64,000 nt of DNA from Candidatus Woesearchaeota archaeon (GCA_038128845.1 JAYPKL010000001.1:42338-106337); one strand, 5' to 3'. Shown: positions 41 to 34,430, counted from the stretch's first letter. The notes: generated by a model from the letters alone, not told the origin. Made by a program: numbers and translations.

Positions 41-601
41 TTAAACAATGTTTTTGAAAGTTCCGCCAGTTGATGCTTGACCTGAAAAGTCAATATCGAA
101 ATAGAATAATGTTCCCACTGGATATGTTGTAACATTAATTAGACATCCTGATGTTAAATTCATAACCAATGTTTTCTTTGCAGATACGCCTAAATCTGTT
201 CCGAATCCTGAAACTGCTGCTGCGTCAGAGGAGGAATTTACATTTTGAGTAGAACAAATTAATGCTTGGTCTTTATCTTTAAGCAATAAAGTTGTTGTTG
301 GAGAAGATGATCCTGAATCCATAGGAATTGGTTGAGCTCCTACGTTTGAAATAACTAAAGTTAAATTGCCACCAGTTTCACTTGTTTCACCTTCATATTG
401 AGCTAAATCAACTAAAATTTGAGAATTAAGATATTCATTTAATGAATCTCCGAATTGTTCTGAACTACCTGTGAAAGATGATTGTAATCTAAGTACCCAG
501 AAAAATGCTGCACCTGCTGCTGCAACAGTCATCATCATTAAAAGAATAATTGCAATAATAGGTGTAATTCCTTTTTTGCTTTTTATTCTTAAAAACTTCA
601 T
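41..601 (-). CDS. archaeal type IV pilin-like protein with class III (prepilin) signal peptide
   Basis: N-terminus MKFLRIKSKKG|ITPIIAIILLMMMTVAAAGAAFFW: a short basic leader ending in KG, then a ~22-aa hydrophobic helix. It is a paralog of the 2993 and 3543 ORFs, sharing the N-terminus and the C-terminal FSG(K/Q)xxTGGxF motif. It carries many N-x-S/T sequons. Confidence 0.6.
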   Translation of the reverse strand: MKFLRIKSKKGITPIIAIILLMMMTVAAAGAAFFWVLRLQSSFTGSSEQFGDSLNEYLNSQILVDLAQYEGETSETGGNLTLVISNVGAQPIPMDSGSSSPTTTLLLKDKDQALICSTQNVNSSSDAAAVSGFGTDLGVSAKKTLVMNLTSGCLINVTTYPVGTLFYFDIDFSGQASTGGTFKNIV

Positions 602-2539: not shown

Positions 2540-2962
2540 ATGAACGATGAATTCGAATTAATTTCGGTTAAAGAACTTAAAAATTTGAAAGAAGAGTTAA
2601 TTGAATTGAAGAAATCTCCTAAGATTAAATCAAATTCAAATAATCCTAAAGAATATGTCAATATATTTAATTCAATATCTCGAATTGAAAATAAATTTGA
2701 GATTACAATAAAAAATTTGAATAAAATGATGAATAAACTTGATAAAATAAGTTCTATTTTTGATTCAGATATTCAAACCGAAGAAGAAGATATTAACAAA
2801 TTAAATGAGTTAATTTCCAGGCTGGAAAACTTAGAAAAATCAAACAAAGAGCTATCCGATAAAACTGAATCATTGCATAATTCGATAAAAAGAAAATCTT
2901 ATTTCAATGAAAGATTTCCTAATGGATTATCATTAAAATATAAACGTACAAAAACTCTGTAA
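2540..2962 (+). CDS. hypothetical coiled-coil protein
   Basis: 140 aa, K/E/L/N-rich heptad-like sequence with no recognisable catalytic motif. Divergent from the thermosome gene. Confidence 0.4.
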   Translation: MNDEFELISVKELKNLKEELIELKKSPKIKSNSNNPKEYVNIFNSISRIENKFEITIKNLNKMMNKLDKISSIFDSDIQTEEEDINKLNELISRLENLEKSNKELSDKTESLHNSIKRKSYFNERFPNGLSLKYKRTKTL

Positions 2963-2992: not shown

Positions 2993-3550
2993 ATGAGAAA
3001 AGGACTTACTCCAGTTATAGCTATGATATTACTTCTTATGATGACCGTAGCTGCAGCGGGTGCAAGTTTTTATTGGTTACTTGGTCTTCAGGGCGAGCTT
3101 CAGGGCGGAACTCAGCAATTTCAAGAGCAAACATTTGAAAGAATGACTTCCGATGTTCAGTGGATGAGTGCAAGTTTTGAAAGAAATGGGACTGGCGACG
3201 ATAATGGAACATTGATGTTAACTATTATGAACACTGGAACAACCAAAATACCAATAAATAATGGTACAACAAGTCCGAAGGTTCAATGGACATTATATGA
3301 TTCTGAGCAAGATTTCATCTGTACTTCAGACTGGTCAAATACTGCAGACATAGTTATTTGTAATAGTGGATGTACATCCGAATTAGCACTAAAGGAAGTA
3401 AGAACAATCAATTTAACCGTTGATGGCAATAATTCATGTAGTTTAAATTCAACTACGACTTATCCGGATGACACATTAATTTATGTTGATATATCCTTTA
3501 GTGGTAAAACCACAACATCAGGAACTTTCAGGGTGGATACCGATGATTAA
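2993..3550 (+). CDS. archaeal type IV pilin-like protein (class III signal peptide)
   Basis: MRKG|LTPVIAMILLLMMTVAAAGASFYW N-terminus. Paralog of 41..601 and 3543..4052. C-terminal FSGKTTTSGTF motif. Multiple N-glycosylation sequons (NGT, NNGT, NLT, NNS, NST). Confidence 0.6.
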   Translation: MRKGLTPVIAMILLLMMTVAAAGASFYWLLGLQGELQGGTQQFQEQTFERMTSDVQWMSASFERNGTGDDNGTLMLTIMNTGTTKIPINNGTTSPKVQWTLYDSEQDFICTSDWSNTADIVICNSGCTSELALKEVRTINLTVDGNNSCSLNSTTTYPDDTLIYVDISFSGKTTTSGTFRVDTDD

Positions 3551-4052
3551 TAAAAAGGGACTTACTCCAATAATAGCAGTAATATTATTGATGATGATGA
3601 CGGTTGCTGCAGCAGGTGCAGGATTTTTCTGGTTTGTTAGAATTCAAGGAGAATTACAATCTGGAGGGGAAAATTATGCAACAGATTTAGGTGAAACTAT
3701 AAATTCCAATCTATATGTGGTTAATTCAGAATATGATTCCGGGGATTTAAAATTAATCGTAAGAAATACTGGAGGAGTAAACATACCTGTAAATAAAGGT
3801 CTTGATTCGCCTACTACTTCGATAATTCTGAATCAAGGAGATGGTCAAGTAATTTGTAATACTTTCTTAGGAAGTACAATTGCTGAGTGTACAAAAGGTT
3901 GTGGGAATGACATACTTGTTGGTGAAACTCAGGAAATTAACATAGATCTATCGGGAGATTGTTCTCTTACAAGTTATTCTGAAGATACTAGCATTTCATT
4001 TTCTATGGACTTTTCTGGTAAAGCTGGCACAGGCGGAGAATTCAGATTATAA
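3543..4052 (+). CDS. archaeal type IV pilin-like protein (class III signal peptide)
   Basis: Start chosen at MINKKG|LTPIIAVILLMMMTVAAAGAGFFW (internal Met of track ORF 3483..4052). Overlaps the upstream pilin stop by 8 bp (ATGATTAA). C-terminal FSGKAGTGGEF motif. Confidence 0.6.
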   Translation: MINKKGLTPIIAVILLMMMTVAAAGAGFFWFVRIQGELQSGGENYATDLGETINSNLYVVNSEYDSGDLKLIVRNTGGVNIPVNKGLDSPTTSIILNQGDGQVICNTFLGSTIAECTKGCGNDILVGETQEINIDLSGDCSLTSYSEDTSISFSMDFSGKAGTGGEFRL

Positions 4053-4085: not shown

Positions 4086-5981
4086 ATGAAGGGTATATCT
4101 GAAATATTATCTATAACAATTGTAACATTAATTACTTTAACTGTATTTTCAGGTTTTTTTTATTGGTATTCGAATATTTCGGAAGATTCTAAAATTGGTT
4201 CAGAAGATTACACTAAAGAAATACAAAGTCAAATAATTACAACTTCAAATAAAATAATAGATGACTTGTATGATGTTTCAAAGGAAAAAAACATTAACAA
4301 TTTTGGAGAATTAACCTATACTATTGAAGCAGAAGATGGTCCAATTTCAATAGATTCAGAAGATTCAAGTTTTTCTCTATATGAAGGATATGGTTCGAAT
4401 ACTGAACTAATTTGTTCAGATTTTGGTTTAAATTGTAATTGTGAAAATGAAATACAAAAAATCTTTGGAGTTTTAGTTAATAATGATACTACTAAAGGAA
4501 TATACTTTTTAGAATATGATTCGATTAATGGCTTTTCTGAAAAACAATTGAAAATTTTTGGAAATTCAAATAATATTAGAAGATGCGATATAAGATATTT
4601 TGATCAATTTGTTGAGGGCGGAAATGATTGTAATGAGCCTAAAAACTTACTTGCAACAGGTTATTGTACTGATGATGATTCTTTTTATGAAAAAGCCACA
4701 TTCGTTTTAGATTCAAATTTAGATGGTAGTTACTATGATCTTTATGATACTGGAGATTTAGAAAAAATATTTGATGTTCAATTTGTAAATGATATTTTAG
4801 TTGATGATACATATCATTTATTCTCTGGTGCTTTTACAGATTATTTCAATGATTCAAATTACAATAAACAAGTTCTGTCTTTTAGCGATTTGATTTACGG
4901 AGATTATGAAAATCTAGGTTCATTTGGATTACTTCCAACTGAAACAGGAAATGCTGGATTGGCAGTAACTGCGATGGAACTTGTTTATCGAAATAATTAT
5001 CCTGCTTTACTCTTCGGAACCAGTCACGAAGAAGCAACTATAACAGGTGGAGCATATTTGGCAATTTCAGATGAACCTGAAAATAATGCAATATTCCAGG
5101 GAAATTTTAGGGCTTTTACTTCAGGATTTGATTGTCCATATGATATGGGTACTTTCTTAAGTGCAGGATTTGATATAGCTAAAATTGCCAATTGCGATAT
5201 TGATTTTAACTCAGTAGTAGAAATTGTTAAAACCGACTTGGTTGAAGATACTTATATTGATTCAGATCCTGTTATTTTAGGTTTAAATGAAGTTACAGAT
5301 GGAATCACAACTTTACCGATTGCAGTATTTTTTACAGATTATAATTACACTTCAACAAGAATTTATAACTTAGATTTAAGTACACTTGGTTTACCGCTTG
5401 ATGTAAAAATTACTCATATGTTTTATGATGATTCAAATGATAGAGTTTTTATTTTACTTGAGTCGACTATTCCTGGTTCTTTAACTACTCAAGTTATTGT
5501 GATTGATCATAATTTTGTTACATTAACTCCTCATTTAATCGAATTGAGTGGTGCAATAGACCCAAGTCTTGATGTGGAAAGTTTTACTGTAATAAATAAC
5601 ACTTTATTTTTTGGAGGGAATTATAATGATGGTATGGGAACCAATCAATCGGAAATATATACTGCCGTATTTGATGAAGAAACATTTGGATTATCTTCCG
5701 TTAATAGAGTGTATAGTAACAATACATTTTACTCTGTTTCAAATTTAGTTACTTTGAATTTATGTGAAGAAAAATCTCCATATTTAGAAACGGAATGTGA
5801 TATAAAACGAGGAGAATCTTGTGAAATAATTTTAAATATTGAAGATACTGATTGTGATATATCGGATTATCCTTCTGAAACTCAATTTTCTTCAACTTTA
5901 ACATTTGGAAAAAATAAAATCTATGAAATATTTAAGAAAGGGAGTGATCCGAGCGAGGAAACGGATTTAGTAGTTGTATGA
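4086..5981 (+). CDS. large secreted or pilus-associated protein with pilin-like N-terminal helix
   Basis: 631 aa. N-terminus MKG|ISEILSITIVTLITLTVFSGFFYW (hydrophobic helix after a KG leader). Asp/Cys-rich body. First gene of an overlapping operon (stop overlaps the next start). Confidence 0.5.
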   Translation: MKGISEILSITIVTLITLTVFSGFFYWYSNISEDSKIGSEDYTKEIQSQIITTSNKIIDDLYDVSKEKNINNFGELTYTIEAEDGPISIDSEDSSFSLYEGYGSNTELICSDFGLNCNCENEIQKIFGVLVNNDTTKGIYFLEYDSINGFSEKQLKIFGNSNNIRRCDIRYFDQFVEGGNDCNEPKNLLATGYCTDDDSFYEKATFVLDSNLDGSYYDLYDTGDLEKIFDVQFVNDILVDDTYHLFSGAFTDYFNDSNYNKQVLSFSDLIYGDYENLGSFGLLPTETGNAGLAVTAMELVYRNNYPALLFGTSHEEATITGGAYLAISDEPENNAIFQGNFRAFTSGFDCPYDMGTFLSAGFDIAKIANCDIDFNSVVEIVKTDLVEDTYIDSDPVILGLNEVTDGITTLPIAVFFTDYNYTSTRIYNLDLSTLGLPLDVKITHMFYDDSNDRVFILLESTIPGSLTTQVIVIDHNFVTLTPHLIELSGAIDPSLDVESFTVINNTLFFGGNYNDGMGTNQSEIYTAVFDEETFGLSSVNRVYSNNTFYSVSNLVTLNLCEEKSPYLETECDIKRGESCEIILNIEDTDCDISDYPSETQFSSTLTFGKNKIYEIFKKGSDPSEETDLVVV

Positions 5982-6601
5982 AAGGACAATCTCAAGTTGT
6001 TGGATTTACAGTAATAACACTAATAATGCTATCTATAACTTCAATTGTATTTCTTTGGGCACAGCCATTAATAGAAAGATCTGTTGATTTTAACAACATA
6101 GATAGAATGGAAAATCAAATGATTAAACTAGATAATGCAATTAAAGAAGTTGCATATGATAAATCTCAAAAAAGTATTAAATTTCAAATAGATTCTGGAA
6201 ATTTAATTTGGGAAAGAAATAATACAATTAACTATTATTCCGATCAGAATTTGCCTTTTTCTTCCGGTGAAAAGATATTAGTTAAGGGAACTTTAATAGG
6301 ATCGGATAATACAACTGCAACAAGTCCGTGTTATAATACTTCAATAAATGGTAGTGTTGGATTGGATGAATCTTCTTGTCTATATAAACAAGGTTCAAAT
6401 TTTCAATTATATTATCCGGTTTTAAACGACACATCGGGAAATTGTTTTGCAATAAGAGTTATACCTGGTAAAAATGCAGGAACTTCGGAAGGTACATATA
6501 CAATAGAATTAAAGTATAATCAAACAATAACAACAGCATATTCTATTGACAATGGATGTTCAACAATTTACAAACCAGAAATAATATTTAATATAAAATG
6601 A
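5978..6601 (+). CDS. minor pilin-like protein
   Basis: MKG|QSQVVGFTVITLIMLSITSIVFLW N-terminus. 207 aa. ATGA overlap on both sides. Confidence 0.5.
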   Translation: MKGQSQVVGFTVITLIMLSITSIVFLWAQPLIERSVDFNNIDRMENQMIKLDNAIKEVAYDKSQKSIKFQIDSGNLIWERNNTINYYSDQNLPFSSGEKILVKGTLIGSDNTTATSPCYNTSINGSVGLDESSCLYKQGSNFQLYYPVLNDTSGNCFAIRVIPGKNAGTSEGTYTIELKYNQTITTAYSIDNGCSTIYKPEIIFNIK

Positions 6602-9318
6602 AGGGGCAAATAAATATAATATACATTGGAATTTTAACTTTAATTAGTATCGCAGTTTTTGGAACTATTTTAATTTGGAACTTTTCTGTAAGCGAATCAA
6701 CTTCAAATGAATTTAACGAAAAACAAATGGAAATAATTGCAACTCAAATATCTGAAGACATAAACTATTTATCTACTTTTGATAAAAATTCAGTTTATAC
6801 GATTAAAAAAGATTTACCATCGACTATTGGTGAAGATGATTATTGTATTAGATTAAATCAAGATGAATTGGGAAACAAAAGAATATATGTTTCTAAAAAG
6901 GGGAATTCACTATCTTATAACTCTTTCAAAAAAACGGATTTTTACATAGATTTCAATAATAAAGAGTTAAATTTTGAAAATTCAATATCTTGTGGCGGTA
7001 AAACAAATATTGTAAAAACTCAAAACTCAATTGAATTAACAACGTCATTAACTTCGGCAGCAACTATTGTTGACGCTCCTCCGACTATATCTACAATAAT
7101 AGATACTTCGACTAACGAAGACACTTCAAAAGATATTACTTTTACTGTTTCGGATGAAAATTTAGCTTCTTTAGCACTTTCTGCAATTTCTGGAAACACT
7201 ACTTTAGTTAATCAAACTGCAAACGGAGGATTAATTATCCCATCTGCGTCAGGATCTTCAAGAACTCTTACAATTAATCCAAATAATAATCAAAATGGAA
7301 TAGTGGAAATAAATATAACTGCAACGGACGGATCTTCTCAAACAGATATCGAATCATTTAATTTGACAATAAATTCTGTTGATGATGGTCCAACAACGCC
7401 AACCGTAATTTATTCGCCTTCTTCAAATAGAAAAGTTGGTGATTCCTTAACTTGTGTCGCATCAAGTACTGATCCGGAAGGAGACTCAATAAGTTATTCA
7501 TATCAATTTAGAAATGGTTCTGAATCTGGAACCATAATTCAAGATTTTAGTTCAGATAATACCATTGACTCTATTTCTGCAACTTATGCTCATGAAGCAA
7601 TTTATTGTATTGCTTATGCAACTTCAAATTCAATTGATTCTTCTAGCAGTATTGCAACTATTACTATCTCCAATACTGATCCGAGTTCTGCAAGTCTATC
7701 TTCCAATACAATTAATGAAGGATCTAGTCCGGGTACTGCTGTGGGTGCAATAACTTGTACTGATGTGGATAATGATGTTTGCAGTTATACAGAGTATGCA
7801 CCAGGTCATAACGGATCTTCCATATTTGAAATAAGCGGTACATCTATTGTTCTATCTAGTGGTCAAAATTTAGATTTTGAAACGGATAATAGTTATAATT
7901 ATTCTGTGCTAGTAGATGACGGTTTTGGGGGGGATATATATCAAGAATTTAACATATCTGTTACTGATATAAATGAGGTACCGACGGATATAACTCCTAA
8001 CTCATTAACTATAAATGAAAATTCTCCAATTAATAGTGAAGTTGGTACTTTAACAGTAACAGATTCGGATTCTGGAGATTCTCATACTTTTACTGAATTA
8101 ACGGGTGGAACGGGGGAATCTTATTTTAATATTAGTTCTTCTGGTGTTGTTGAAGTTGAAGAAAATTCAATACTCAATTATGAATCAGGAACAACAAGCT
8201 ATACTTACGAAGTTAGAGTTACTGATTCAGGTTCTTTAACTTATAATGAAATAATTACAATTAATATTTTGGATGTTAATGAAGCTCCAGTAACTTTCGA
8301 AGATTCATATTCAATGGATCAAGATACAACATTGAATATTATTGAATCGGAAGGTGTTCTTGCTAATGATACGGACCCAGATTCCGATACTTTAACTGCA
8401 ACTTTAGTTAATGATGTATCCACGGGATCGTTGAGTTTGGCTTCAGATGGTTCATTTACTTATACTCCGGTTATTGGATTTACAGGAACGGTTGAATTTA
8501 ATTATTCGGCAGGAGATGGAGGAATAAGTTCATTGCCCGAAAATGTAACCATTACTGTAAATGCTGTATCAAATAATGCGCCGGTTGCTTCAGCAGATTC
8601 AGCCGCAGTAAATGAAGACACAACTCTTTCCGATACATTGACTGCTGCAGATATAGATGGAGACTCATTGACTTTTTCCATAGTTTCACAAGCATCAAAC
8701 GGAGTAGCTACAATTACAAACTCGACAACTGGGGCTTTCAACTATGTTCCGGGCGCAAATTATAATGGAGCGGATTCATTTACTTTCAAAGCAAATGATG
8801 GAACAGATAATTCAAATACAGCTACATTTTCAATAACAATTAATTCGGTAAATGATGCTCCAATTTGGTCTCCAGTAATTCCTGATAAAACAGTGGGAGT
8901 TTCGGAATCCACTAACATAGATTTATTTACATATCATTTGGATGTTGACGGTAGTGATTTAGCAACAAGTTTTTCAATAAATTCAATATCTCCGCCATCG
9001 CCAGATTTTACTTGTAGTATAACTTCAGATCAATATCTTGATTGTATTTGGAATTCTGCTCCTCCCGCTCTGCCTCAACTATTTGATGTTACTGTTAATG
9101 CAGATGATGGAAATGGTGGAAGTGCTACGGATACGGTTGCTATAACAGTAGATCCTTCTGCAGGTGGAAGCTGTCAACCTATTCCTGATCCGAGTCTTTG
9201 TGATCCTACTTATGATCCTGAAGAGTATCCTGAAGCAAGTCATGATGGAAGAAGTTGTTATAGAAGTCAAGATGATTGTGATAACAGTGTATCTCCAATT
9301 GGAGCATATTTAGGATAA
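6598..9318 (+). CDS. pilin-headed adhesin with tandem cadherin-like repeats
   Basis: 906 aa. MKG|QINIIYIGILTLISIAVFGTILIW N-terminus. Body has ~100-aa repeats ending in D-x-N-(D/E)-x-P linkers (SVDDGP, TDINEVP, LDVNEAP, SVNDAP) typical of cadherin or VCBS-like domains. Cys-rich C-terminus. Confidence 0.6.
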   Translation: MKGQINIIYIGILTLISIAVFGTILIWNFSVSESTSNEFNEKQMEIIATQISEDINYLSTFDKNSVYTIKKDLPSTIGEDDYCIRLNQDELGNKRIYVSKKGNSLSYNSFKKTDFYIDFNNKELNFENSISCGGKTNIVKTQNSIELTTSLTSAATIVDAPPTISTIIDTSTNEDTSKDITFTVSDENLASLALSAISGNTTLVNQTANGGLIIPSASGSSRTLTINPNNNQNGIVEINITATDGSSQTDIESFNLTINSVDDGPTTPTVIYSPSSNRKVGDSLTCVASSTDPEGDSISYSYQFRNGSESGTIIQDFSSDNTIDSISATYAHEAIYCIAYATSNSIDSSSSIATITISNTDPSSASLSSNTINEGSSPGTAVGAITCTDVDNDVCSYTEYAPGHNGSSIFEISGTSIVLSSGQNLDFETDNSYNYSVLVDDGFGGDIYQEFNISVTDINEVPTDITPNSLTINENSPINSEVGTLTVTDSDSGDSHTFTELTGGTGESYFNISSSGVVEVEENSILNYESGTTSYTYEVRVTDSGSLTYNEIITINILDVNEAPVTFEDSYSMDQDTTLNIIESEGVLANDTDPDSDTLTATLVNDVSTGSLSLASDGSFTYTPVIGFTGTVEFNYSAGDGGISSLPENVTITVNAVSNNAPVASADSAAVNEDTTLSDTLTAADIDGDSLTFSIVSQASNGVATITNSTTGAFNYVPGANYNGADSFTFKANDGTDNSNTATFSITINSVNDAPIWSPVIPDKTVGVSESTNIDLFTYHLDVDGSDLATSFSINSISPPSPDFTCSITSDQYLDCIWNSAPPALPQLFDVTVNADDGNGGSATDTVAITVDPSAGGSCQPIPDPSLCDPTYDPEEYPEASHDGRSCYRSQDDCDNSVSPIGAYLG

Positions 9319-9355
9319 CTAAAAAAACATATATAATAAAATAACAATAATAAAT

Positions 9356-11035
9356 ATGTTAAATAAGAGGGCAATCCGACTTTTAAATAAATATAAGAAT
9401 AATAATTCAAATATCAATAAAAAAGAGATTTTACAGAATAATTCTAACATAAAAATTGATGAAGAAGTTGAAACAAAACTAAAAGTAAAATTACCGCAAG
9501 ATCACATTTCACATAAGTCTGCAGAAGAAAATATATTGGAAGAATTAAGAAATGTTAATGAAAATTATCCTTTGATTACGGCAAATATAAATAATCAAAC
9601 TATAATTCTTGCAAGTGCCCATATTTATTTTGATGATGAAAATCAAACTCTGAAGTATAATGTAATTGAGCCAAAATTAAATGAATATATGCATGAGATT
9701 ATAAACAGAACAATTGAAGAATTACATGAGAATTTAGATTTAGAATTTGAAAATCTAAAAAATAAAGATGAAATTCAAAAATATTTACATAAAAAAATTG
9801 AAGATATATGGAATAAAATGAATTTACAACCATCGCCAGAAAATTCAATGATCTTGAAGTACTATACTGTGAGACAAGTTTCTGGATTGGAAATAATTGA
9901 TGCCATAATGCAAGATCCGAATATTGAAGATATATCTTGTGATGGGATAGGAATGCCTATTTTCATATTTCATAGAAATCCAGTTTATGGTGAAATGTCA
10001 ACCAATATTTCATTTAATTCTAAACAAGACTTAGATTCTTTTTGTATGAGACTTGCACAGAAGGCAAAAAGATCAATATCGGTTGCAAATCCGTTAATGG
10101 ATGGATCTTTAGAAGATGGATCAAGAGTACAAATTACTTATGGTACCGATATTTCCAGAAGAGGAAGTAATTTTACAATAAGAAAATTTTTCAAAAATCC
10201 CCTTAGTCCAATTGACTTAATGAAATTTGAAACAGTTGATGCAATAACTTTAGCTTACTTATGGTATGCAATTGAAATGGAAAAATCAATTCTAGTTGCA
10301 GGTTCAACTGCATCAGGTAAAACTACTTTCTTAAATTCAATTTCATTATTTATAAGGCCAAATGATAAAATTGTTTCAATTGAAGATACTTCTGAACTTC
10401 AAATACCTCGCGCTAATTGGATTCCTCAAGTAACTCGAACCGGTTTTGGTCCTGAAAAATATGGTGAAATCGATATGCACAATCTTCTAAAATCTTCTTT
10501 AAGACAAAGACCCGATTATTTAATTGTTGGAGAAGTTCGAGGTGTGGAAGCTGAAGTATTATTTCAGGCCATGGCTACAGGTCATCCGGGCTTATCTACA
10601 ATCCATGCAGACAATGTAGCGGCAGTAATAGATCGTTTGAGTACGCCTCCAATTCAATTGCCATTATCTGTACTTCAAAATTTGGATATTATTGTTTTCT
10701 TAGAAAAAATGAAGAAGGAAGGTAAATTTTTTAGAAAACTTAAGAAAGTAGTAGAAGTTGAAGGTTTTGATGCAAAGAATAAAGAACTAAAAATTAATGA
10801 TGCGATTGTATATGATCCAAAAACAAATCAATTAACTAAAAATGAAAGTTTTATTTTATCCACAATAGCTGAGTCAAATGCAAAAAATCATGAACATGTT
10901 CTGGATGAAATAATGAGAAGATCTAATATTTTGAAATGGATGTATGAAAAGGAGATTACTAGATTTGAGGAAGTTAACAAAATAATTACTACTTATTACG
11001 CCAATCCTGAATCAGTATTAAATATGATAAAATGA
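9356..11035 (+). CDS. type IV pilus/archaellum assembly ATPase (FlaI/PilB/TadA, VirB11-like family)
   Basis: Walker A VAGSTASGKTTFLNS, Walker B/Asp box DYLIVGEVRG, downstream His box TGHPG. 559 aa with an N-terminal extension typical of archaeal FlaI-like ATPases. Confidence 0.85.
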   Translation: MLNKRAIRLLNKYKNNNSNINKKEILQNNSNIKIDEEVETKLKVKLPQDHISHKSAEENILEELRNVNENYPLITANINNQTIILASAHIYFDDENQTLKYNVIEPKLNEYMHEIINRTIEELHENLDLEFENLKNKDEIQKYLHKKIEDIWNKMNLQPSPENSMILKYYTVRQVSGLEIIDAIMQDPNIEDISCDGIGMPIFIFHRNPVYGEMSTNISFNSKQDLDSFCMRLAQKAKRSISVANPLMDGSLEDGSRVQITYGTDISRRGSNFTIRKFFKNPLSPIDLMKFETVDAITLAYLWYAIEMEKSILVAGSTASGKTTFLNSISLFIRPNDKIVSIEDTSELQIPRANWIPQVTRTGFGPEKYGEIDMHNLLKSSLRQRPDYLIVGEVRGVEAEVLFQAMATGHPGLSTIHADNVAAVIDRLSTPPIQLPLSVLQNLDIIVFLEKMKKEGKFFRKLKKVVEVEGFDAKNKELKINDAIVYDPKTNQLTKNESFILSTIAESNAKNHEHVLDEIMRRSNILKWMYEKEITRFEEVNKIITTYYANPESVLNMIK

Positions 11036-11901
11036 ATTTATCAAATCGAGCAACTAGTTTATTTGGAAAATATGTAAATTCTGAAAATTTTTTATTTAAA
11101 AATTTGAAACAAAAATTAAAACAAGCTAAAATAAAATTACCCGTTGAAACATATGGTTCCATTATATTTTTAGTGCTATTTTCGTCATTTATAGTTTCTC
11201 TAATTTTTTTATTATTTCTTAGTATTTTAACTGTGGGTATTAATTTTTCAGCAATACTAATGAATTTTATTGTTGCAATTTTTGTAGGACTAATTTGCGG
11301 AACTTTTACGTATTTTTATCCTAATTTTATTATTAGTGAAAAGAAAGGAAAAATTGAAAATTCACTTGCATTTGTTTCAATTTATATGTCGACATTAACA
11401 AAGTCTGGTTTCCAACCTCAAAATATATTCAAAATGTTGAGCAAATTTGATGATTATCCTGCTGCAGCAAATGAAGCACGGAAAATTAATCATGAGGTAA
11501 ATAAATTGGGAATGGATTTACGTACATCAATCTCTAAAGCAATAGAAAGGTCTCCTTCTCCAGATTGGACGGAATTTTTATCGGGTATAAAAAATAGTAT
11601 TGAATCAGGCGGAAACTTAGATAAATATCTTGAAGAAAAAGCAAAAGGATATACGGGAGATTACAAACGAAAATTAGAATCTTTTGGAAAAACTTTAACT
11701 TTATTGATGAACTTATACATAACAGTAATAATTGTTGGTACAATTTTTTTCATAATAGTTTCTTCACTAATGGGTGCAGTCGGTGGTATCTCTGTGGGAA
11801 CTATAAAATTATTTCATTATATTACGGTATTTGGAGGTTTACCGCTTATAACAGCAATTCTAATAACTTTAGTTAAAAGTGCTTCGCCATGGTCAGAATA
11901 G
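11032..11901 (+). CDS. pilus platform membrane protein, N-terminal half (T2SS-F/TadB/FlaJ-like)
   Basis: 289 aa polytopic membrane protein immediately downstream of the ATPase and overlapping it (ATGA). Assigned by position and topology; it forms a split pair with the next ORF. Confidence 0.5.
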   Translation: MNLSNRATSLFGKYVNSENFLFKNLKQKLKQAKIKLPVETYGSIIFLVLFSSFIVSLIFLLFLSILTVGINFSAILMNFIVAIFVGLICGTFTYFYPNFIISEKKGKIENSLAFVSIYMSTLTKSGFQPQNIFKMLSKFDDYPAAANEARKINHEVNKLGMDLRTSISKAIERSPSPDWTEFLSGIKNSIESGGNLDKYLEEKAKGYTGDYKRKLESFGKTLTLLMNLYITVIIVGTIFFIIVSSLMGAVGGISVGTIKLFHYITVFGGLPLITAILITLVKSASPWSE

Positions 11902-13028
11902 AAGAACTAAAGAAACAAAAAAAATTATATTATACTCTACTGGCTCTGCCATTGCCTCTAATTTTGGGAGCTTTGGCTTTTGTATTTGGTGCATCTTCAA
12001 CATTTGCAATAGCTTTGATATCAATTGGGTTAATACTTGTTGTTCTTCCTTCAATGATTTTATCTTTTTTAGAATTTAGAGATATTAAATCTTCGGAAGA
12101 TAATTTTCCAAATTTTCTTGACGATTTGTCTCAATCTTCTTCTGCAGGGATGAATCTACCTCAGGCAATTTCGGTTGCAAGTAAAACTAGCTATGGTAAA
12201 TTGACTTCCCACATCAAACAATTGAATATATGGTTAACTTGGAACATGGCATTCCCGGCCGCATGGAAAAAATTTACAAAAAGATTGGATGCAAGTCCGC
12301 TTATAAGAAGAGTTAATGGTATAATTATTGAAGCGTTTAATGGAGGCGGAGACGTGAATAAAACTCTTGGATCTTTAGCTGCCGATGTTAATATAATAAA
12401 AGATATGGAGGCAGAAAGAAGATCAATAATGCAACAGCAAATAGTAATTATGTATATTATTTTCTTTGTATTTATTGGAGTAATCATCGCATTATACAAA
12501 ATTCTTTCTCCAATACTTTATGTTCAACAGATTGGTTCGTTTTCTGGAATTGGAATTCAAGGTTCTGGAACATTATCTATCGAATACTTTAGAAATTTAT
12601 TTTTTGTAATGACTTTAGTTGAGGCAGTTTGTGCAGGTCTAATTGCAGGTCAAATTGCGGAAGAAAAATTAGTTGCAGGAGTAAAACATATTGTAATAAT
12701 GACTGCAAGTACAATTTTAATTTTCTTTATTTTTGTATTTCCTACAACACTTTCCGTAGACATATCTGTTTATCCGAGTCAAACATTTACGGAAGGAAAA
12801 GTTACTTTTACAGGAAAAGCTTTTTCAGAGGGAGCTCCGGTAACGGGAGCAGATGTAACTATAATTGATTATGATAATACAATAATAAATTTATTTACGG
12901 ATAATGCAGGAGAATTTAGATATGTTTGGAACGCTCCTGAAGTACCGGGAAATTATACTGTCGGTTTAACAATTGAACATGAGGGGGAAGTTAAGAGCTT
13001 TAGACGAAGTATCTTTGTAGAAAATTGA
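11889..13028 (+). CDS. pilus platform membrane protein, C-terminal half (TadC/FlaJ-like) with C-terminal beta-sandwich extension
   Basis: 379 aa with multiple TM helices, then a soluble C-terminal ~90 aa (GKVTFTGKAF...VTGADVTIIDYDNTIINLFTDNAGEFRY...PGNYTV) resembling a carboxypeptidase-regulatory or Ig-like fold. Confidence 0.5.
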   Translation: MVRIEELKKQKKLYYTLLALPLPLILGALAFVFGASSTFAIALISIGLILVVLPSMILSFLEFRDIKSSEDNFPNFLDDLSQSSSAGMNLPQAISVASKTSYGKLTSHIKQLNIWLTWNMAFPAAWKKFTKRLDASPLIRRVNGIIIEAFNGGGDVNKTLGSLAADVNIIKDMEAERRSIMQQQIVIMYIIFFVFIGVIIALYKILSPILYVQQIGSFSGIGIQGSGTLSIEYFRNLFFVMTLVEAVCAGLIAGQIAEEKLVAGVKHIVIMTASTILIFFIFVFPTTLSVDISVYPSQTFTEGKVTFTGKAFSEGAPVTGADVTIIDYDNTIINLFTDNAGEFRYVWNAPEVPGNYTVGLTIEHEGEVKSFRRSIFVEN

Positions 13029-14080
13029 AAAAAGGGTATGCAGTAGGTGAATTTATTTTAGTATCATTTTTTTTTCTAATTTTAGTTGTTTTAATTATTA
13101 ACAGATTTACAGATTATACTTTGATTGAATTAAATAAATTTGAAGATTATCAAGAATGTGAAAATTCAATAAAAAATTTTGAGAAACTATTTGATGACGA
13201 ATTAGTAATGACTGCAAATTCAAATTTAAGTTCAATTATATCCAATTATACTTCTGAGGGAAATAACATCTCTATATTAAATTCCAATATTACTCAATTG
13301 GGATTTTCATCTGGGAAAAATAAACTAAATTATACCAGTTTAAATTTAATTTTTAATAATTTAAGAATATTTGATTGGAATGAATATGAAAATTCATATG
13401 ATAGTTTTTCAATAAATGTTGAACCGTATGCAGTTAATGTTGAATCTATTTATTCCGATGAGTCGAATATAACCGGATTCTATGGTGAAACTAGAGCGAA
13501 TATTTGGTTAAATGATTCGGTTACAAATTCGAACACAGTTCATTATACAATAGGATTAAGTGCATATGAAACTTCGGGCTACGATTCTATTTTTGAATTT
13601 GTTATTTTAATTCCAAATGCCACAGTATTGGGTTCATTAGATCCCGGATTGTCTAATTCTGGTTCTAATTCTCAATATCTGAAAATTAGTGGTTCAATTG
13701 AACCAAATACAAGCAGGGAAACAGTATATTTTTCATATTCTTCAGATACAACAAATTATATTGGATGGGGAGACGATTATGCAAACTATGGTTTAAATTA
13801 TGAAGAGATACAAAATATTACTAAAAAAAATAATCTAATTATTTTTGATAAAATAAAATTTTATGATCAAGAAACTAAAAAGGAATTAGACATAGTTTTT
13901 GGAAACAATACAAATTTAAATTTAAATTGGGGTCCGGAAAATGCAGAAGGTTGTAAATATAGTAGAATATATTTAATTGAAGATGATTCAAAAAGAATTA
14001 ATTACACAATAAACGGATTCGTTAAAGAAATAAATATTAATCCGAAAATTTATTCAAAGATTGAGGTTGTATCGAGATGA
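13025..14080 (+). CDS. minor pilin-like protein
   Basis: MKKG|YAVGEFILVSFFFLILVVLIINRF: KG leader, hydrophobic helix and Glu at about +6 as in type IV prepilins. N-x-S/T rich. Overlapping starts. Confidence 0.45.
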   Translation: MKKGYAVGEFILVSFFFLILVVLIINRFTDYTLIELNKFEDYQECENSIKNFEKLFDDELVMTANSNLSSIISNYTSEGNNISILNSNITQLGFSSGKNKLNYTSLNLIFNNLRIFDWNEYENSYDSFSINVEPYAVNVESIYSDESNITGFYGETRANIWLNDSVTNSNTVHYTIGLSAYETSGYDSIFEFVILIPNATVLGSLDPGLSNSGSNSQYLKISGSIEPNTSRETVYFSYSSDTTNYIGWGDDYANYGLNYEEIQNITKKNNLIIFDKIKFYDQETKKELDIVFGNNTNLNLNWGPENAEGCKYSRIYLIEDDSKRINYTINGFVKEININPKIYSKIEVVSR

Positions 14081-14463
14081 ATAAGAAAGGATATGTTTAT
14101 TTTATTGAAATTATTTTATCTTTAATATTTGTAGTTTTTTTATTTTTTTCTTTGAAACCGAGCACTGCGGAATACGAGTATGATGATAAATTTTCACAAG
14201 ATATTCTGTATATTTTATATTATCAAGATTTGATAAAATATGATCTTAATGATACTAATTCATTTGAGAGTTATGTAAATAATAGTATAGTCGGTCTTAT
14301 TGGATATACAAAAGATTTTGAAATTAATTATAATCTTGATGAAACTTCTTTTAGTGGTAACTCGAATAAAGTAAATAGTGATTTATCCAATGGATATATT
14401 CATTCTAAAAATTTGAATAATAATTGGTATACAATAAACCTGTATACTTGGAGTAAATTATGA
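14077..14463 (+). CDS. minor pilin-like protein
   Basis: MNKKG|YVYFIEIILSLIFVVFLFFSL N-terminus. 128 aa. Confidence 0.45.
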   Translation: MNKKGYVYFIEIILSLIFVVFLFFSLKPSTAEYEYDDKFSQDILYILYYQDLIKYDLNDTNSFESYVNNSIVGLIGYTKDFEINYNLDETSFSGNSNKVNSDLSNGYIHSKNLNNNWYTINLYTWSKL

Positions 14464-15089
14464 GAGGTCAATTTTTCTTAATAGGCATAATTGTTACTGC
14501 AGTAATATTATTGCTATCTCTAAATGTTTTATCCTCGAATGAAAAAATATTTTTATCAGACGATAAGGAAAAGTATTTTGATAATTTTAACTTTGCATAT
14601 GAATATTCGATTCCAGGAAATTGGGAATATTTTGATGAAGCGTATCGCAGCACAATTGGAATATGTATAAATCCGTCCAATCAAAGTATGACAAATTGGT
14701 GGAATACTTCTATTAAGTTAAATAGCGAAAATGATTGTGTTTTTACCTCAGAAAACTATCATGTGACGCAGGGTAATGAGTGTACTTTATTTATCAATGC
14801 ATCAAACTTATCTTCTTATTTAGATTCAGATACTAATTGTGGTAATTTTATTTTCTATTACAATTCGACTTCGGGTATTGAAGAAAGTAATGCGTCACAA
14901 GGAACAACTGGATTGAATATATCTTTGGTTTCAGAAGAATCAATTACTAATTCGCCTATAAATTCTTCAATAAATATAACTAAATTTTACTTAGAAAAAA
15001 ATATTCTGGTAGATGAGACTGCTTATTCTTCTGGTACATACACTATAAATTATAGTTCTGAAAACTTAGATTTTGAAGGAACAATTTAG
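14460..15089 (+). CDS. minor pilin-like protein
   Basis: MRG|QFFLIGIIVTAVILLLSLNVL N-terminus. 209 aa, many N-glycosylation sequons. Last gene of the operon. Confidence 0.45.
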   Translation: MRGQFFLIGIIVTAVILLLSLNVLSSNEKIFLSDDKEKYFDNFNFAYEYSIPGNWEYFDEAYRSTIGICINPSNQSMTNWWNTSIKLNSENDCVFTSENYHVTQGNECTLFINASNLSSYLDSDTNCGNFIFYYNSTSGIEESNASQGTTGLNISLVSEESITNSPINSSINITKFYLEKNILVDETAYSSGTYTINYSSENLDFEGTI

Positions 15090-15117: not shown

Positions 15118-17226
15118 ATGTTAGTTTCAAGTATAAAAGATAAACTTCCTGAAAAGTTTTTCAAAACAATTGAATTTGAAGAATTTAGACCTTCTCAAAG
15201 CAAAGCAATAGATAGGGGACTTTTGGAAAGTAAAAATATGTTAATATGTTCTCCGACTGCTTCGGGTAAAACTTTTGTTGCAGAACTAGCCGGAATTAAA
15301 AGTATAATTGAAACTGGTGGTAAAATGATTTATATTGTTCCGCTTAAATCTCTTGCAACTGAAAAAGCAGAAGAATTCAAAAAGTATGAAGAAATTGGAA
15401 TTAAAACGGCAGTTTCAATAGGAGATCCAGAATCAAAAGATCCGTGGTTGGCAAATGCAGATATAATCGTATGTACTAGTGAAAAATTCGATTCATTATT
15501 AAGACATAATATTTCTTGGTTAAATAAAATTAAAGTAGCAGTATTTGATGAAATTCATTTAATAAACGATTCAAATAGGGGACCAACATTAGAAGTTATA
15601 ATAACTTTGTTGAAAACTTTGTTAAATAAAATTCAAATTATTGGACTTTCAGCAACAATTGGAAATCCAAAAGAACTTTCAGATTGGTTAGAGGGCGAAT
15701 TAATTCAAGATTCTTGGCGTCCAGTAAAACTTATTCAAGGAATTTATGCAGATGAAGAAATAAACTTTGAAAAAAAAGTAATACCTGTTGAAAAAATAAA
15801 AAATGATGCAACTTTATCTTTGGCATTAGATACAATAAATTTGGGTAAACAAGCACTAATATTCTGTCCAACAAAAAAATCTGCTCAATCAACTGCCAAA
15901 AAAATTTCAAATTTAATAAAATCTGAACTAAATAAAGACTTATCTTCTAAAATTAAATCTGCCGCAGGAGTTCCCACAATGCAATGTGAAGAACTTGGTG
16001 ATTGCGTAAGCAAAGGTATTGCATTTCATCATTCAGGTCTTTTATCAAAACAAAAAAAAATTGTTGAAGAAAATTTCAAAAATAATATAATAAAAATAAT
16101 TTGCTGTACGCCAACTCTTGCGATGGGAGTTAATCTTCCTGCATTTAGAGTTATTATGAAGAGTCTAAAAAGATATGGAAAAAGAGGAATGGATTGGATA
16201 CCCGTATTAGAATATCATCAAATGACGGGTAGAGCAGGAAGACCAAAATTTAATGATTCTCACGGAGAGGCAATTTCAATAGCAAAAGATAATTCTGAAT
16301 TTGATTACATAAATGAATCATATTTAAGAGGAAGTGCAGAAGATTTAACTTCAAAATTGGGAGTTGAACCGATACTAAGATCGGTTATATTGAGCTTAGT
16401 TGCATCAGGATTTGTTATAAAAGAAGAAAAATTAATTGAATTTTTTAGTAATACATTTTATGGTTCTCAATTTGGTAATGACTTTGGTTTTAAAATTAAA
16501 ATATTATCAGCATTATCTGATCTTGAAAAATTTAAATTTCTTAAAAGAACGGAAACATCTATAATTCCAACAGTGGTGGGAAAAAGAGTTTCTGAATTAT
16601 ATATTTATCCTGATGCTGCTTTTGAAATAATTAATAATTTTGAAAAGATGTCTAATATTTTTGAAGATTTACCTTTCTTACATTCAATAAGTTCAAATTT
16701 AGAAATGAGTCCGTGGTTATCTTTACAAAAAAAAGATTATGAATATATCGATATCTCTTTATCTGAAATTGAAGACAAATTAATAAATCCAATTCCATAT
16801 CAATGGGATTATGAATATGATGAATTTTTAAGAAAAACAAAAACTTGTTTTGTATTGAATGAATGGATAAATGAGAGTAATGAAAAAGAAATATTTGAAA
16901 ACTATAATGTTGCACCTGGATTGATGAGAGATATTTCTAATAAATGTGAATGGTTACTTTATGGTGCTGCTGAATTGGCCAAGGTGACTGGAAATTTAGA
17001 TAAAGTTAGCGATATAACTAAACTAAAAATAAGAATTAAAAATGGAATAAAATCTGAATTACTGCCGTTAATTAGATTGAAAGGTATTGGAAGAGTGAGG
17101 GCAAGAAGATTATTTGGATCGGGATTAAAATCTTTACAAAATTTAAAATCTGCAAATATAGAATTGCTTTCTGATATTCTCGGTGAAAAAACTGCAATAT
17201 CTGTTAAGAAACAATTGAATTTATAA
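15118..17226 (+). CDS. hel308: Hel308/Hjm-type Ski2-like DNA helicase
   Basis: Motif I SPTASGKT, motif II DEIH, motif IV HHSGL, and a C-terminal winged-helix/HhH region. 702 aa. Confidence 0.8.
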   Translation: MLVSSIKDKLPEKFFKTIEFEEFRPSQSKAIDRGLLESKNMLICSPTASGKTFVAELAGIKSIIETGGKMIYIVPLKSLATEKAEEFKKYEEIGIKTAVSIGDPESKDPWLANADIIVCTSEKFDSLLRHNISWLNKIKVAVFDEIHLINDSNRGPTLEVIITLLKTLLNKIQIIGLSATIGNPKELSDWLEGELIQDSWRPVKLIQGIYADEEINFEKKVIPVEKIKNDATLSLALDTINLGKQALIFCPTKKSAQSTAKKISNLIKSELNKDLSSKIKSAAGVPTMQCEELGDCVSKGIAFHHSGLLSKQKKIVEENFKNNIIKIICCTPTLAMGVNLPAFRVIMKSLKRYGKRGMDWIPVLEYHQMTGRAGRPKFNDSHGEAISIAKDNSEFDYINESYLRGSAEDLTSKLGVEPILRSVILSLVASGFVIKEEKLIEFFSNTFYGSQFGNDFGFKIKILSALSDLEKFKFLKRTETSIIPTVVGKRVSELYIYPDAAFEIINNFEKMSNIFEDLPFLHSISSNLEMSPWLSLQKKDYEYIDISLSEIEDKLINPIPYQWDYEYDEFLRKTKTCFVLNEWINESNEKEIFENYNVAPGLMRDISNKCEWLLYGAAELAKVTGNLDKVSDITKLKIRIKNGIKSELLPLIRLKGIGRVRARRLFGSGLKSLQNLKSANIELLSDILGEKTAISVKKQLNL

Positions 17227-24098: not shown

Positions 24099-24123
24099 TA
24101 AAATATATAAATAAAAATAAAAT

Positions 24124-24825
24124 TTGAATAAAATGAAAAAAGGGATATTAATTACGCTCTATAACGAAGCACCAAGAATAGAAAAAGTTTTGAGTAGATT
24201 AAAAAATTACAATTTAATATTAGTAAATGATGGTTCAACAGATGATACTCTGAAAATAATTAAAAATCATAAAAATGCCCACATAATAACTTATAAAAAA
24301 AATAAAGGAAAAGGCTATGCTTTACAAAAAGGAATATCCTATGCAAAAAATAATAATTATGATGCTTTGATTTTAATGGATGGGGATGGGCAACATAACT
24401 CTCTCGATATTAAAAAATTTGAAAAAAAATTGTCGGAAGGATACGATATAGTAATTGGATCTCGATTTTTAAAAAATAATAGTAATGTTCCGTTTATGAG
24501 AAAAATTATTTTATTTGGAGGTAAAATAATTGAAAGAATAATAATTGGAATAAATTTAACTGATGCACATAATGGTTTTAGGGCAATGAATAAACGTGCT
24601 ATGAAAAAAATAAAATTGACTGAAAATCGAATGTCTTATGCGTCTCAATTGATGTTTGAAGTTAAAAAACATAAATTAAATTATTGCGAAGTGCCAGTAA
24701 AAATAAAATACACAAAAGAAACGTTGGAAAAAGGTACGGGATCATTGTTTACCGGATTTAAAATAATATTTAGATTAATTCCATTAAAAATAAGATATTT
24801 AAAGTTTAATGGAGTGAAGAAATAG
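24124..24825 (+). CDS. GT2-family glycosyltransferase (dolichyl-phosphate sugar transferase-like)
   Basis: ILITLYNEAPRI, DGSTDDT (DxD) and LILMDGDGQH motifs of GT-A fold Dpm1-like transferases. Confidence 0.75.
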   Translation: MNKMKKGILITLYNEAPRIEKVLSRLKNYNLILVNDGSTDDTLKIIKNHKNAHIITYKKNKGKGYALQKGISYAKNNNYDALILMDGDGQHNSLDIKKFEKKLSEGYDIVIGSRFLKNNSNVPFMRKIILFGGKIIERIIIGINLTDAHNGFRAMNKRAMKKIKLTENRMSYASQLMFEVKKHKLNYCEVPVKIKYTKETLEKGTGSLFTGFKIIFRLIPLKIRYLKFNGVKK

Positions 24826-25139
24826 TGGTATCAAAAAAAAGTTTAGCTCTAAGTAAAATGTTTATGTCTAGAACTGCAGGCTATTTAGGTCTTATTAATG
24901 CAGGAATGATTCTTTTTTTGGTATTAAGTCGATTTGAAGACTATGGTTTTGATATAGAGATTGAGAGATATTTCTTTTTAATAGTGCTTTTTGGACTGGT
25001 TATTCTTGCAATATTTGGCTGGTTAGATGATAAATTGGGTTTTCATCAATTGGAAAGAGAGCATATTGAAAATAGAAATCCTTACATGAAAAAAATTCTA
25101 TTACGTCTAGATGAAATTGAAAAAAAATTAAATAAATAA
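24825..25139 (+). CDS. small two-TM membrane protein (hypothetical), translationally coupled to GT2 gene
   Basis: 104 aa with two hydrophobic helices. Its start overlaps the GT2 stop. Confidence 0.35.
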   Translation: MVSKKSLALSKMFMSRTAGYLGLINAGMILFLVLSRFEDYGFDIEIERYFFLIVLFGLVILAIFGWLDDKLGFHQLEREHIENRNPYMKKILLRLDEIEKKLNK

Positions 25140-25142
25140 TAA

Positions 25143-25805: not shown

Positions 25806-25886
25806 ATTATTAATTTAAATTTATTTTTATAAACTTATCATTATATAATAAAACAAAGCTTAAAAATAGAGAATATAGAGAAATCT

Positions 25887-34060: not shown

Positions 34061-34098
34061 ATTGGTATTTTTTTATCAGTAGTTTTTAAAAATCATTA

Positions 34099-34428: not shown

Positions 34429-34430
34429 CT

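Follow-up and report, generated by a model that had tools for sequence, protein, structure and literature searches.

The window analyzed here is a 64,000-nucleotide stretch, read on one strand from 5' to 3', of the genome of a Candidatus Woesearchaeota archaeon (GCA_038128845.1 JAYPKL010000001.1:42338-106337). Its genes at 4086-15089 had been described in an earlier note as an archaeal type IV pilus operon. Our follow-up analysis indicates that these genes, together with others in the window, probably encode a filament system of the type IV (pilus) kind, and not an archaellum, in a marine archaeon of the Woesearchaeota (DPANN). The window has a G+C content of about 29% and carries archaeal housekeeping genes, including those for a thermosome, Hel308, SecF/SecD, AglB, both PolD subunits, Orc1/Cdc6, PolB, and RadA/RadB. 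Exact-sequence look-ups found identical or near-identical copies of window proteins in marine samples, Tara among them.

Gene content and organization of the locus

The genes of the locus are as follows; sizes are in amino acids (aa), and a slash within a motif marks the presumed cut.

2993-3550, plus strand: candidate major filament subunit 1, 185 aa, of the archaellin/pilin type; TIGR02537 above cut-off; Pfam Arch_flagellin 35.4 against a cut-off of 29.5
3543-4052, plus strand: candidate major filament subunit 2, 169 aa; class III motif KKG/LTPIIA; TIGR02537 31 bits, above cut-off
4086-5981, plus strand: pilin-headed protein, 631 aa, with a large, fast-evolving, beta-rich ectodomain; motif KG/IS, then a transmembrane helix
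5978-6601, plus strand: presumed minor pilin, 207 aa; motif KG/QS, then a transmembrane helix
6598-9318, plus strand: apparent modular minor pilin, 906 aa, with a pilin head of about 160 aa, cadherin/Big_9 repeats over about 750 aa, and a cysteine-rich tail; motif KG/QI, then a transmembrane helix
9356-11035, plus strand: assembly ATPase, 559 aa, of the VirB11/GspE/FlaI superfamily; Pfam T2SSE 120 bits
11032-11901, plus strand: N-terminal half of the platform protein, 289 aa; one T2SSF domain, Pfam 60.9 bits
11889-13028, plus strand: C-terminal half of the platform protein, 379 aa; one T2SSF domain, Pfam 51.7 bits
13025-14080, plus strand: pilin-like protein, 351 aa, TTG start; N terminus KKG/YAVGEF, then a transmembrane helix
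14077-14463, plus strand: pilin-like protein, 128 aa; N terminus KG/Y.Y..E
14460-15089, plus strand: pilin-like protein, 209 aa; N terminus [KR][GA]/QF[FL], then a transmembrane helix, kept across five loci

The order pilin(s), ATPase, platform N-terminal half, platform C-terminal half, and three small N-terminally anchored proteins is kept in five relatives, in which the ATPase is 86% (L009), 68% (L005), 63% (a JGI contig), 55% (L007), and 52% (the complete Woesearchaeota genome CP070803) identical to that of the window. Since the same order recurs over this range of identity, the arrangement is not due to chance. These archaeal relatives came from exact-protein look-ups; a scan of genome contigs with the ATPase returned only a bacterial Tad ATPase from a Hellea metagenome-assembled genome, at 35% identity. 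In GenBank, the key proteins carry generic names (type II/IV secretion system ATPase subunit, archaellin/type IV pilin N-terminal domain-containing protein, and cadherin domain-containing protein).

Open reading frame (ORF) calls recovered all nine of the consecutive plus-strand ORFs that the earlier note had placed at 4086-15089, in the order and of the types it gave. Its division into three large and three small proteins around the machinery was less exact, since the former measure 631, 207, and 906 aa and the latter 351, 128, and 209 aa. The same ORFs had been described as linked by overlaps of at most 13 bp, with ATGA at six junctions. Read directly in the sequence, five of these are 4-bp ATGA overlaps (at 5978, 6598, 11032, 14077, and 14460), and the two platform genes do overlap by 13 bp (11889/11901). 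The sixth, at 13025, likewise spans 4 bp but reads TTGA, since TTG is the start codon of the second gene; L009 has TTG there as well, whereas L005 and L010 have ATG at the homologous position. The chain is further interrupted by a 37-bp gap before the ATPase gene.

The pilus locus also extends beyond 4086-15089. A pair of pilin genes that share 8 bp (2993-3550 and 3543-4052) ends 33 bp upstream of 4086 and is conserved together with the locus. This pair and a prepilin peptidase gene 42 kb away probably belong to the system. The ATPase, platform, and pilins of the "complete assembly machine plus its cargo" proposed earlier are indeed there; as delimited, however, the locus was not complete, because the likely major subunits and the peptidase lie outside it. 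With these included, the window holds everything that forms the core of a type IV filament system in archaea, four components in all: a T2SSE ATPase, T2SSF platform halves, subunits with class III signals, and an A24 peptidase.

The assembly ATPase is not of the FlaI type

The 559-aa protein had been assigned to the FlaI/PilB/TadA family of secretion ATPases, and this was borne out by its T2SSE domain and by four intact nucleotide-binding motifs. Walker A (GSTASGKT), the Asp box, Walker B, and the His box all align with those of afGspE from Archaeoglobus. Among PDB sequences, afGspE (2OAP) gave the highest score at 366 bits, followed by the FlaI protein of Sulfolobus acidocaldarius (281 bits) and CpaF (130 bits). 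On the NCBI FlaI equivalog model NF058587, the ATPase scored 408 bits, against a cut-off of 550. This model was calibrated with two solved proteins: S. acidocaldarius FlaI scored 641 bits, and the non-archaellar afGspE scored 429 bits, which is the range in which the window ATPase lies. A Woesearchaeota homologue of the ATPase also scored 408 bits. The FlaI model was the top-scoring NCBIfam model for the window protein, though below cut-off, and the TadA model TIGR03819 reached 144.5 bits against a cut-off of 373. For PilB3_C (PF23989), the score was 24.8 bits with a cut-off of 27, compared with 13.9 for afGspE and no score for FlaI; this domain is present in many homologues of the ATPase at 50-56% identity. 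From these comparisons, the ATPase is not FlaI and falls with the non-archaellar afGspE. With afGspE as its closest solved homologue and a near-threshold PilB3_C match, it looks clade 2-like, and its strong resemblance to both afGspE and FlaI speaks, if indirectly, against membership of the fast-evolving clade 1 (EpdL-type).

Family-model searches of the 64-kb window found no FlaH, FlaF, FlaG, FlaX, or FlaCDE at threshold. The best ArlF match was 19.6 bits and the best ArlG match 16.1 bits, with a cut-off of 110 for each. One candidate for FlaH, at 47003-47695, was rejected as RadB (198.7 bits against a cut-off of 172.4); it is the sole small RecA/KaiC-like ATPase in the window. What the earlier note had named as telling against a pilus, a FlaI-type ATPase with FlaF/G/H homologs nearby, is therefore not what the window holds. 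Within the window, the locus falls outside the archaella on the features tested, because the ATPase scores below the FlaI cut-off, because FlaH, FlaF, FlaG, FlaX, and FlaCDE are missing at threshold, and because FlaJ is split. The preference expressed earlier for a pilus or adhesion filament over a motility structure is upheld.

A platform protein encoded in two genes

Both genes downstream of the ATPase encode polytopic platform proteins, as had been noted, with one T2SSF domain each. The product of 11032-11901 matches positions 5-232 of the 555-position ArlJ/FlaJ model, and the product of 11889-13028 matches the C-terminal half of ArlJ models. BLASTP of one half against the other detected no similarity, and neither half had a meaningful match among PDB sequences. 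Judged by these model matches, the two products together constitute a single platform encoded in two genes. The platform is split in the window and in all five relatives, and the 13-bp (or a 4-bp) overlap recurs. Since split and overlap are found in relatives down to 52% ATPase identity, they are not a frameshift artefact. The second half also carries a C-terminal beta-rich extension of about 90 aa, with a weak CarboxypepD_reg match at residues 314-358 that is seen in L005 as well. Counting of transmembrane segments suggests that this extension is extracellular.

Candidate shaft subunits

The products of 2993 and 3543 share the N terminus K-G-L-T-P-[VI]-I-A, and the second is a paralogue of the first at 40% identity. 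The AlphaFold2 model of the 2993 product (predicted local distance difference test [pLDDT] score, 78) consists of a long helix and a beta-sandwich, and the protein is predicted to adopt the fold of archaeal type IV filament subunits. Both are the most conserved proteins in the locus (93% and 91% identity in L009, with the ATPase at 86%), and such subunits were found on many contigs. We infer that they form the main shaft. A profile of the subunits gave only marginal matches to PDB sequences (E values of 0.012 and 0.09), and Pilin_N (PilA/DUF1628) did not match the subunits at E values up to 0.1. The strict FlaFind class III pattern is matched by six proteins, three of which also score above the TIGR02537 cut-off. 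When near-motifs kept among orthologs are counted together with strict class III signals, such a motif is found in five of the six proteins that flank the machinery and in both products of the upstream pair.

A second pilin module lies at 41-819 on the minus strand, where it is cut by the start of the window. It contains a 73-aa protein with two transmembrane segments and the following paralogue of the major subunits.

41-601, minus strand: third major-subunit paralogue, 186 aa, 39% identical to the 2993 product; motif KKG/ITPIIA; TIGR02537 33.6 bits; Arch_flagellin 31 against a cut-off of 29.5

In relatives (L005, 1-3314; L009, 1-1078), the module continues with a 167- to 169-aa protein in both and with an 809-aa protein in L005, which measures 855 aa in the JGI contig.

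Pilin-headed proteins and candidate adhesive modules

A class III signal check of the three upstream proteins agreed with their description as pilin headed. The products of 4086, 5978, and 6598 all start with M-K-G followed by a hydrophobic helix, and all fit the strict FlaFind pattern. The 5978 product has orthologues at 78% identity in L009, 55% in L005, and 33% in L010.

The 906-aa product of 6598 combines two kinds of sequence. Its head aligns end to end with proteins of 139-171 aa that hold the corresponding slot, immediately before the ATPase gene, in L005, L007, and L010, and the rest gave Pfam matches to Big_9 (152 bits), Cadherin_4 (134), Cadherin_5 (97), and Cadherin (60). Because the head corresponds to the small pilins of relatives and the remainder to cadherin/Big_9 repeats, the protein reads as a conserved small minor pilin that gained an adhesin module in this lineage. 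The L009 counterpart has 875 aa. A tandem repeat search of the gene (6598-9318) found no repeats at the DNA level.

The 631-aa product of 4086 has a weak UpsB match at its N terminus. Its similarity to the L009 counterpart is 42% identity over the first 300 aa only, compared with 81-92% for housekeeping genes, and the gene is absent from L007 and L010. The family is very small: searches found just 8 homologues in 5.8 billion clusters and 17 in 1.84 billion representatives. The protein is a candidate tip adhesin. Foldseek matches to its model were all beta-propellers, and the protein is possibly PilY1-like; this stays a suggestion because the template modeling scores were below 0.3 and PilY1 was not among the matches.

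The downstream trio

Each protein of the downstream trio has an N terminus that is conserved and pilin-like across five loci. In the 351-aa product of 13025, the motif is conserved as [KR]G/Y.VGE and reads KG/QS in L007 and L010; the protein is 56% identical in L009 and 30% in L005, and searches of Pfam/NCBIfam-type families gave no match for it. In the 128-aa product of 14077, residues G5, Y6, Y8, and E11 are invariant across the five loci, and a C-terminal I.LY.W motif is also conserved. The match found by hhalign between its family and the pilin family is confined to the first 14 residues. The 209-aa product of 14460 is 45% identical in L009. The class III signal check therefore supports the earlier label of small pilin-like proteins in part: the N termini are conserved, but the strict FlaFind pattern fails for all three.

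Comparison with L009 separates the parts of the system by their rate of change. Identity is 91-93% for the major subunits, 85-92% for the machinery, 81-92% for housekeeping proteins, 45-65% for the trio, and 42% for the 631-aa protein. By this measure, the 631-aa protein and the trio change at a far higher rate than the machinery does, a pattern that would be expected of exposed tip or adhesive parts.

Predicted processing, glycosylation, and expression

Two enzymes encoded elsewhere in the window could modify the pilins.

57036-57809, minus strand: class III signal (prepilin) peptidase, encoded 42 kb away from the pilus genes; Pfam Peptidase_A24 32.2 against a cut-off of 26.5
21609-24098, plus strand: AglB/STT3 oligosaccharyltransferase with STT3 domains, 6.5 kb downstream of the locus

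The peptidase is polytopic and has both catalytic-aspartate motifs, YEIPD and GGGDAKL; it would process the pilins of the locus. AglB is followed on the plus strand, up to 29040, by genes for a family 2 glycosyltransferase (GT2), an NAD-dependent epimerase, a nucleotide-sugar dehydrogenase, and a GT4 protein. Its gene content marks 21609-29040 as an N-glycosylation cluster near the pilus locus. In the pilin-like proteins, the density of N-glycosylation sequons is 2.7 times that of cytoplasmic proteins (2.05 versus 0.75 per 100 aa), with 12 in the 13025 product and 10 in the 14460 product (4.8 per 100 aa). AglB is the probable N-glycosylation enzyme for the pilins.

Among genes of the window that follow a gap of at least 20 nt, 15 of 31 have their best TATA-like match starting between -34 and -24 from the ATG; the same is true of 1 of 21 overlapped genes. 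Because a TATA-like box about 28 nt upstream of the ATG is common in the first group and rare in the second, these counts suggest that leaderless transcription is usual in the source genome. Such boxes stand before 2540 (-25), before 2993, 4086, and 9356 (about -28), and before the Hel308 gene, and they are conserved in L009 and L005. From the boxes before 2993, 4086, and 9356, the locus is probably transcribed in three or more units (2993-4052, 4086-9318, and 9356-15089), each with its own leaderless promoter. The single polycistron envisaged earlier is for this reason unlikely. A scan for sigma-70 promoters and intrinsic terminators in the window gave no enrichment (91 sites versus 79 ± 9 and 5 versus 4.3, respectively); this kind of scan does not apply to archaea.

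Neighboring genes and other features of the window

Two genes flank the locus.

2540-2962, plus strand: soluble coiled-coil protein, 140 aa, directly upstream of the pilin genes, with neither transmembrane segment nor signal motif and with weak coiled-coil matches only
15118-17226, plus strand: Hel308-type helicase, 28 bp past the last pilus gene

The 140-aa protein occupies the same position in L009 (80% identity), L005 (56%), and JGI 3300072015 and is absent from L007 and L010. Family searches gave no specific family match for it, and it may be an accessory protein or unrelated to the system. The adjacency of Hel308 to the pilus locus is kept in L005, L009, and the JGI contig and is lost in L007 and L010. 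We rejected Hel308 as a member of the system because it has its own TATA-like box and because its adjacency is gone in these more distant relatives; its position is probably mere conserved synteny.

Elsewhere in the window, a 591-bp AT-rich intergenic region at 34061-34651 separates the gene for the PolD large subunit (30617-34060, minus strand) from Orc1/Cdc6 (34652-35863, plus strand), with the PolD small subunit next. A 28-nt inverted pair (34147-34174 and 34608-34635) stands on either side of this intergenic region, and the cumulative GC skew of the window has its maximum near 30 kb. The region is a candidate replication origin. A Cas4/RecB-like nuclease gene (29928-30620, minus strand) shares 4 bp with the start of the PolD DP2 gene (30617-34060), and a homologue of presenilin-type signal-peptide peptidase is encoded at 37224-37976 (plus strand). 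At 62296-62399 (plus strand) lies a 104-nt tRNA, found with Rfam at 61 bits and missed by ARAGORN, which probably contains an intron.

A model for assembly and attachment

The analysis shows what the components are, which motifs they carry, how far they are conserved, and that they do not make up an archaellum; the filament itself, the split into major and minor subunits, the tip location, the glycosylation, and the adhesive function are inferred. The proteins of the locus suggest a mechanism whose dynamics are drawn by analogy from established type IV filament families. About ten prepilins would enter the membrane, the A24 peptidase would cut after the conserved Lys/Arg-Gly, and AglB would probably N-glycosylate them. 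The ATPase (9356-11035), as a hexamer, would dock on a heterodimeric platform of the two half-FlaJ/TadC proteins (11032-13028), and ATP hydrolysis would raise subunits from the membrane into the filament. Its body would consist of the archaellin/pilin-type subunits of 2993-4052, possibly joined by the 41-601 paralogue. Low-abundance proteins, namely, the 5978 product, the head of the 6598 product, and the trio of 13025-15089, would prime assembly and finish at the tip. There, two lineage-specific, fast-evolving modules would be displayed and might bind a surface or a partner cell; one is the cadherin/Big_9 stalk that the 906-aa protein carries, and the other is the beta-rich body of the protein of 631 aa. 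The locus is a good candidate for an attachment organelle, and a role in cell-cell attachment is conceivable.

Several points weigh against reading the locus as a pilus system of this kind. The system is known here from genes alone, and no filament, transcript, or protein has been observed. Because the window covers 64 kb of the genome, FlaH, FlaF, or FlaG could lie elsewhere in it. The argument from the ATPase draws on a single curated cut-off and a pair of reference proteins instead of a phylogeny, and it is limited because non-archaellar clade 2 ATPases are sister to FlaI in a published tree (PMC4858521). Neither the subunit fold nor the Pfam Arch_flagellin matches distinguish a pilin from an archaellin. 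The trio not only fails the strict FlaFind pattern but also shares nothing with the pilin family past the N terminus in hhalign comparisons; since the similarity ends there, "pilin-like" describes the signal region of these proteins. The peptidase match is modest (32 bits), with no NCBIfam match for the 57036-57809 product. Finally, the AlphaFold2 model of the 631-aa protein is of low confidence (pLDDT, 52.8), built from an alignment of 8 sequences.

A broader proposal is that the locus represents a conserved host- or surface-attachment organelle of Woesearchaeota, with an invariant archaellin-like shaft, a non-FlaI ATPase, a two-piece platform, and a tip of five conserved minor pilins on which lineage-specific adhesive modules, such as the cadherin/Big_9 repeats and a propeller-like body, are swapped. 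We regard this as tentative and rather doubtful in its full form. If it is true, the fast-evolving tip modules would set partner specificity, and sequence data would reveal the host range of an uncultured DPANN group. The means by which DPANN archaea locate partner cells and stay attached to them are little understood, and no Woesearchaeota filament has been characterized. For type IV pili of Nanoarchaeota, a role in host attachment has already been proposed in the literature. The locus offers a complete, conserved pilus-type system in a marine member of the Woesearchaeota, with concrete candidates for shaft, tip, and adhesin, the modular cadherin pilin among them, and the pattern of divergence marks the parts most likely to carry specificity. 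In a preprint on groundwater CPR (candidate phyla radiation) and DPANN organisms (10.1101/2020.05.14.094862), pili were taken as a sign of CPR cells, and type IV pilus components were held to be missing in DPANN genomes. The conserved Woesearchaeota locus contradicts this premise.

Alternative functions

The same genes could serve a bindosome-like or pseudopilus display, in which a short membrane-proximal structure anchors the 631-aa and 906-aa proteins and no long pilus is made. Such a display would account for several large ectodomain proteins with class III signals, and the display of binding proteins has been put forward in a 2026 preprint as a widespread use of type IV filament machineries in archaea. 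BasE was also the second-best NCBIfam model for the ATPase. Its score, however, was 215.6 bits against a cut-off of 1000, and that of BasF was 21.8 against 1300. Moreover, no substrate-binding-protein domains were found, and two or three highly conserved small subunits with the size and fold of a filament body are encoded with the machinery. We consider a display of this kind unlikely.

A reduced or divergent archaellum would use the archaellin-like subunits as a rotating filament, driven by a FlaI-like ATPase, with the trio in place of the FlaF/FlaG stator. The superfamily is shared, the subunits match Arch_flagellin and fold like archaellins, and FlaI is the best NCBIfam model for the ATPase. 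Archaellated archaea, including one with the tiny, minimal Nst1 genome, nevertheless all keep seven components: FlaI, FlaH, FlaJ, FlaF, FlaG, archaellins, and FlaC/D/E (PMC4858521). Here, the ATPase scores in the range of afGspE, FlaJ is split in every relative, the FlaH candidate is RadB, the ArlF and ArlG matches are far under their cut-offs, and FlaX and FlaCDE were not found in the window. The pilins also carry fused adhesin modules, which suit adhesion and not propulsion. An archaellum is therefore improbable, more so than the display just described.

Many biosynthetic pathways are missing in DPANN archaea, and a DNA-uptake (competence-type) pilus could feed nucleotides or DNA to a metabolically reduced cell, with the Hel308 gene 28 bp downstream (adjacent also in the closer relatives) and a weak ComGD-like match of the 5978 product (16.7 bits) in its favor, yet it is highly improbable: neither a channel of the ComEC or Ced type nor any feature of a DNA-binding pilin was found in the window, Hel308 has its own TATA-like box and loses its adjacency in L007 and L010, and the ComGD match is far under the cut-off of 70.

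Comparison with known filament systems

The earlier designation of the pilus as Tad/Aap/Epd-like holds insofar as an archaeal type IV pilus-type assembly system is concerned; it was not narrowed to one subtype. Among archaella, the resemblance lies in the superfamily and in the subunits, and the differences lie in the ATPase score, the split FlaJ, the adhesin modules on pilins, and the accessory proteins that did not reach threshold in the window. The Epd pilus of Methanococcus maripaludis and its bacterial derivative Tad (with TadB/TadC) have two platform genes beside the ATPase, many minor pilins in the cluster, and a role in adhesion, and all of these find counterparts here, the adhesive role as a proposed one. 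Their major pilin, in contrast, is Flp-like and without a globular domain; the candidate major subunits here measure 169-186 aa and have a full beta-sandwich in the prediction. Similarity to TadA and CpaF is low (144.5 against 373 bits for TIGR03819; 130 bits for CpaF against 366 for afGspE), and there is no dedicated peptidase inside the window cluster.

The euryarchaeal clade 2 or system 2 pili, represented by PilA/PilB3C3 of Haloferax volcanii and by afGspE (2OAP), are closer in the ATPase. They share afGspE as the closest solved homologue, the near-threshold PilB3_C match, and an extended ATPase N terminus, and their loci contain large proteins that resemble adhesins, along with pilin-like proteins that lack strict class III motifs. 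They differ in having a single platform gene according to the 2026 census and in subunits that match Pilin_N/PilA. Makarova et al. (2016, PMC4858521), on the other hand, in their catalogue of archaeal type IV pilus loci, found tadC in two copies in clade 1 as well as in many loci of clade 2, and they placed a few Nanoarchaea in clade 2.

DPANN loci with two platform genes have been placed in System 1 and in a variant of subsystem 4A (Sivabalasarma & Albers 2026, bioRxiv 10.64898/2026.04.22.720090). Shared with these are the ATPase, the two platform genes, the class III pilins, accessory genes that follow those of the platform, an adhesin (here a candidate) encoded within the locus, and occurrence in DPANN. 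The match to subsystem 4A is one of gene order only, and the arrangement is also System 1-like. Subsystem 4A also has a PilY-like adhesin and arCOG11238/arCOG06117 pilins; a possible counterpart of the adhesin here is the 631-aa protein, which is propeller-like at low confidence and has no PilY1 match. Assignment to a subsystem is accordingly split, with an ATPase that looks clade 2-like and a gene order that looks 4A- or System 1-like.

Two bacterial parallels bear on the tip, both without sequence homology. The modular pilins PilB and PilC of Streptococcus sanguinis (PMC9934059) fuse a small pilin module to an adhesive module, as does the 906-aa protein. The PilY1/PilC tip adhesins (PMC13533445) are separate large beta-rich proteins encoded with minor pilins, as is the 631-aa protein, which is possibly propeller-like; they differ in that the propeller here is of low confidence and lacks a PilY1 match and in that a tip location is presumed for the 631-aa protein.

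The locus does not reveal a machine of a new type, since comparable loci from DPANN archaea already appear in census papers. To our knowledge, the trio, the cadherin-fused minor pilin, and the C-terminal platform extension have not been individually described as a set. What seems worth recording is the conserved set of minor pilins, the modular cadherin pilin, and the contrast in rate between shaft and tip, within a locus that belongs to an already catalogued kind of archaeal type IV filament system, that with two platform genes, which includes members in DPANN.

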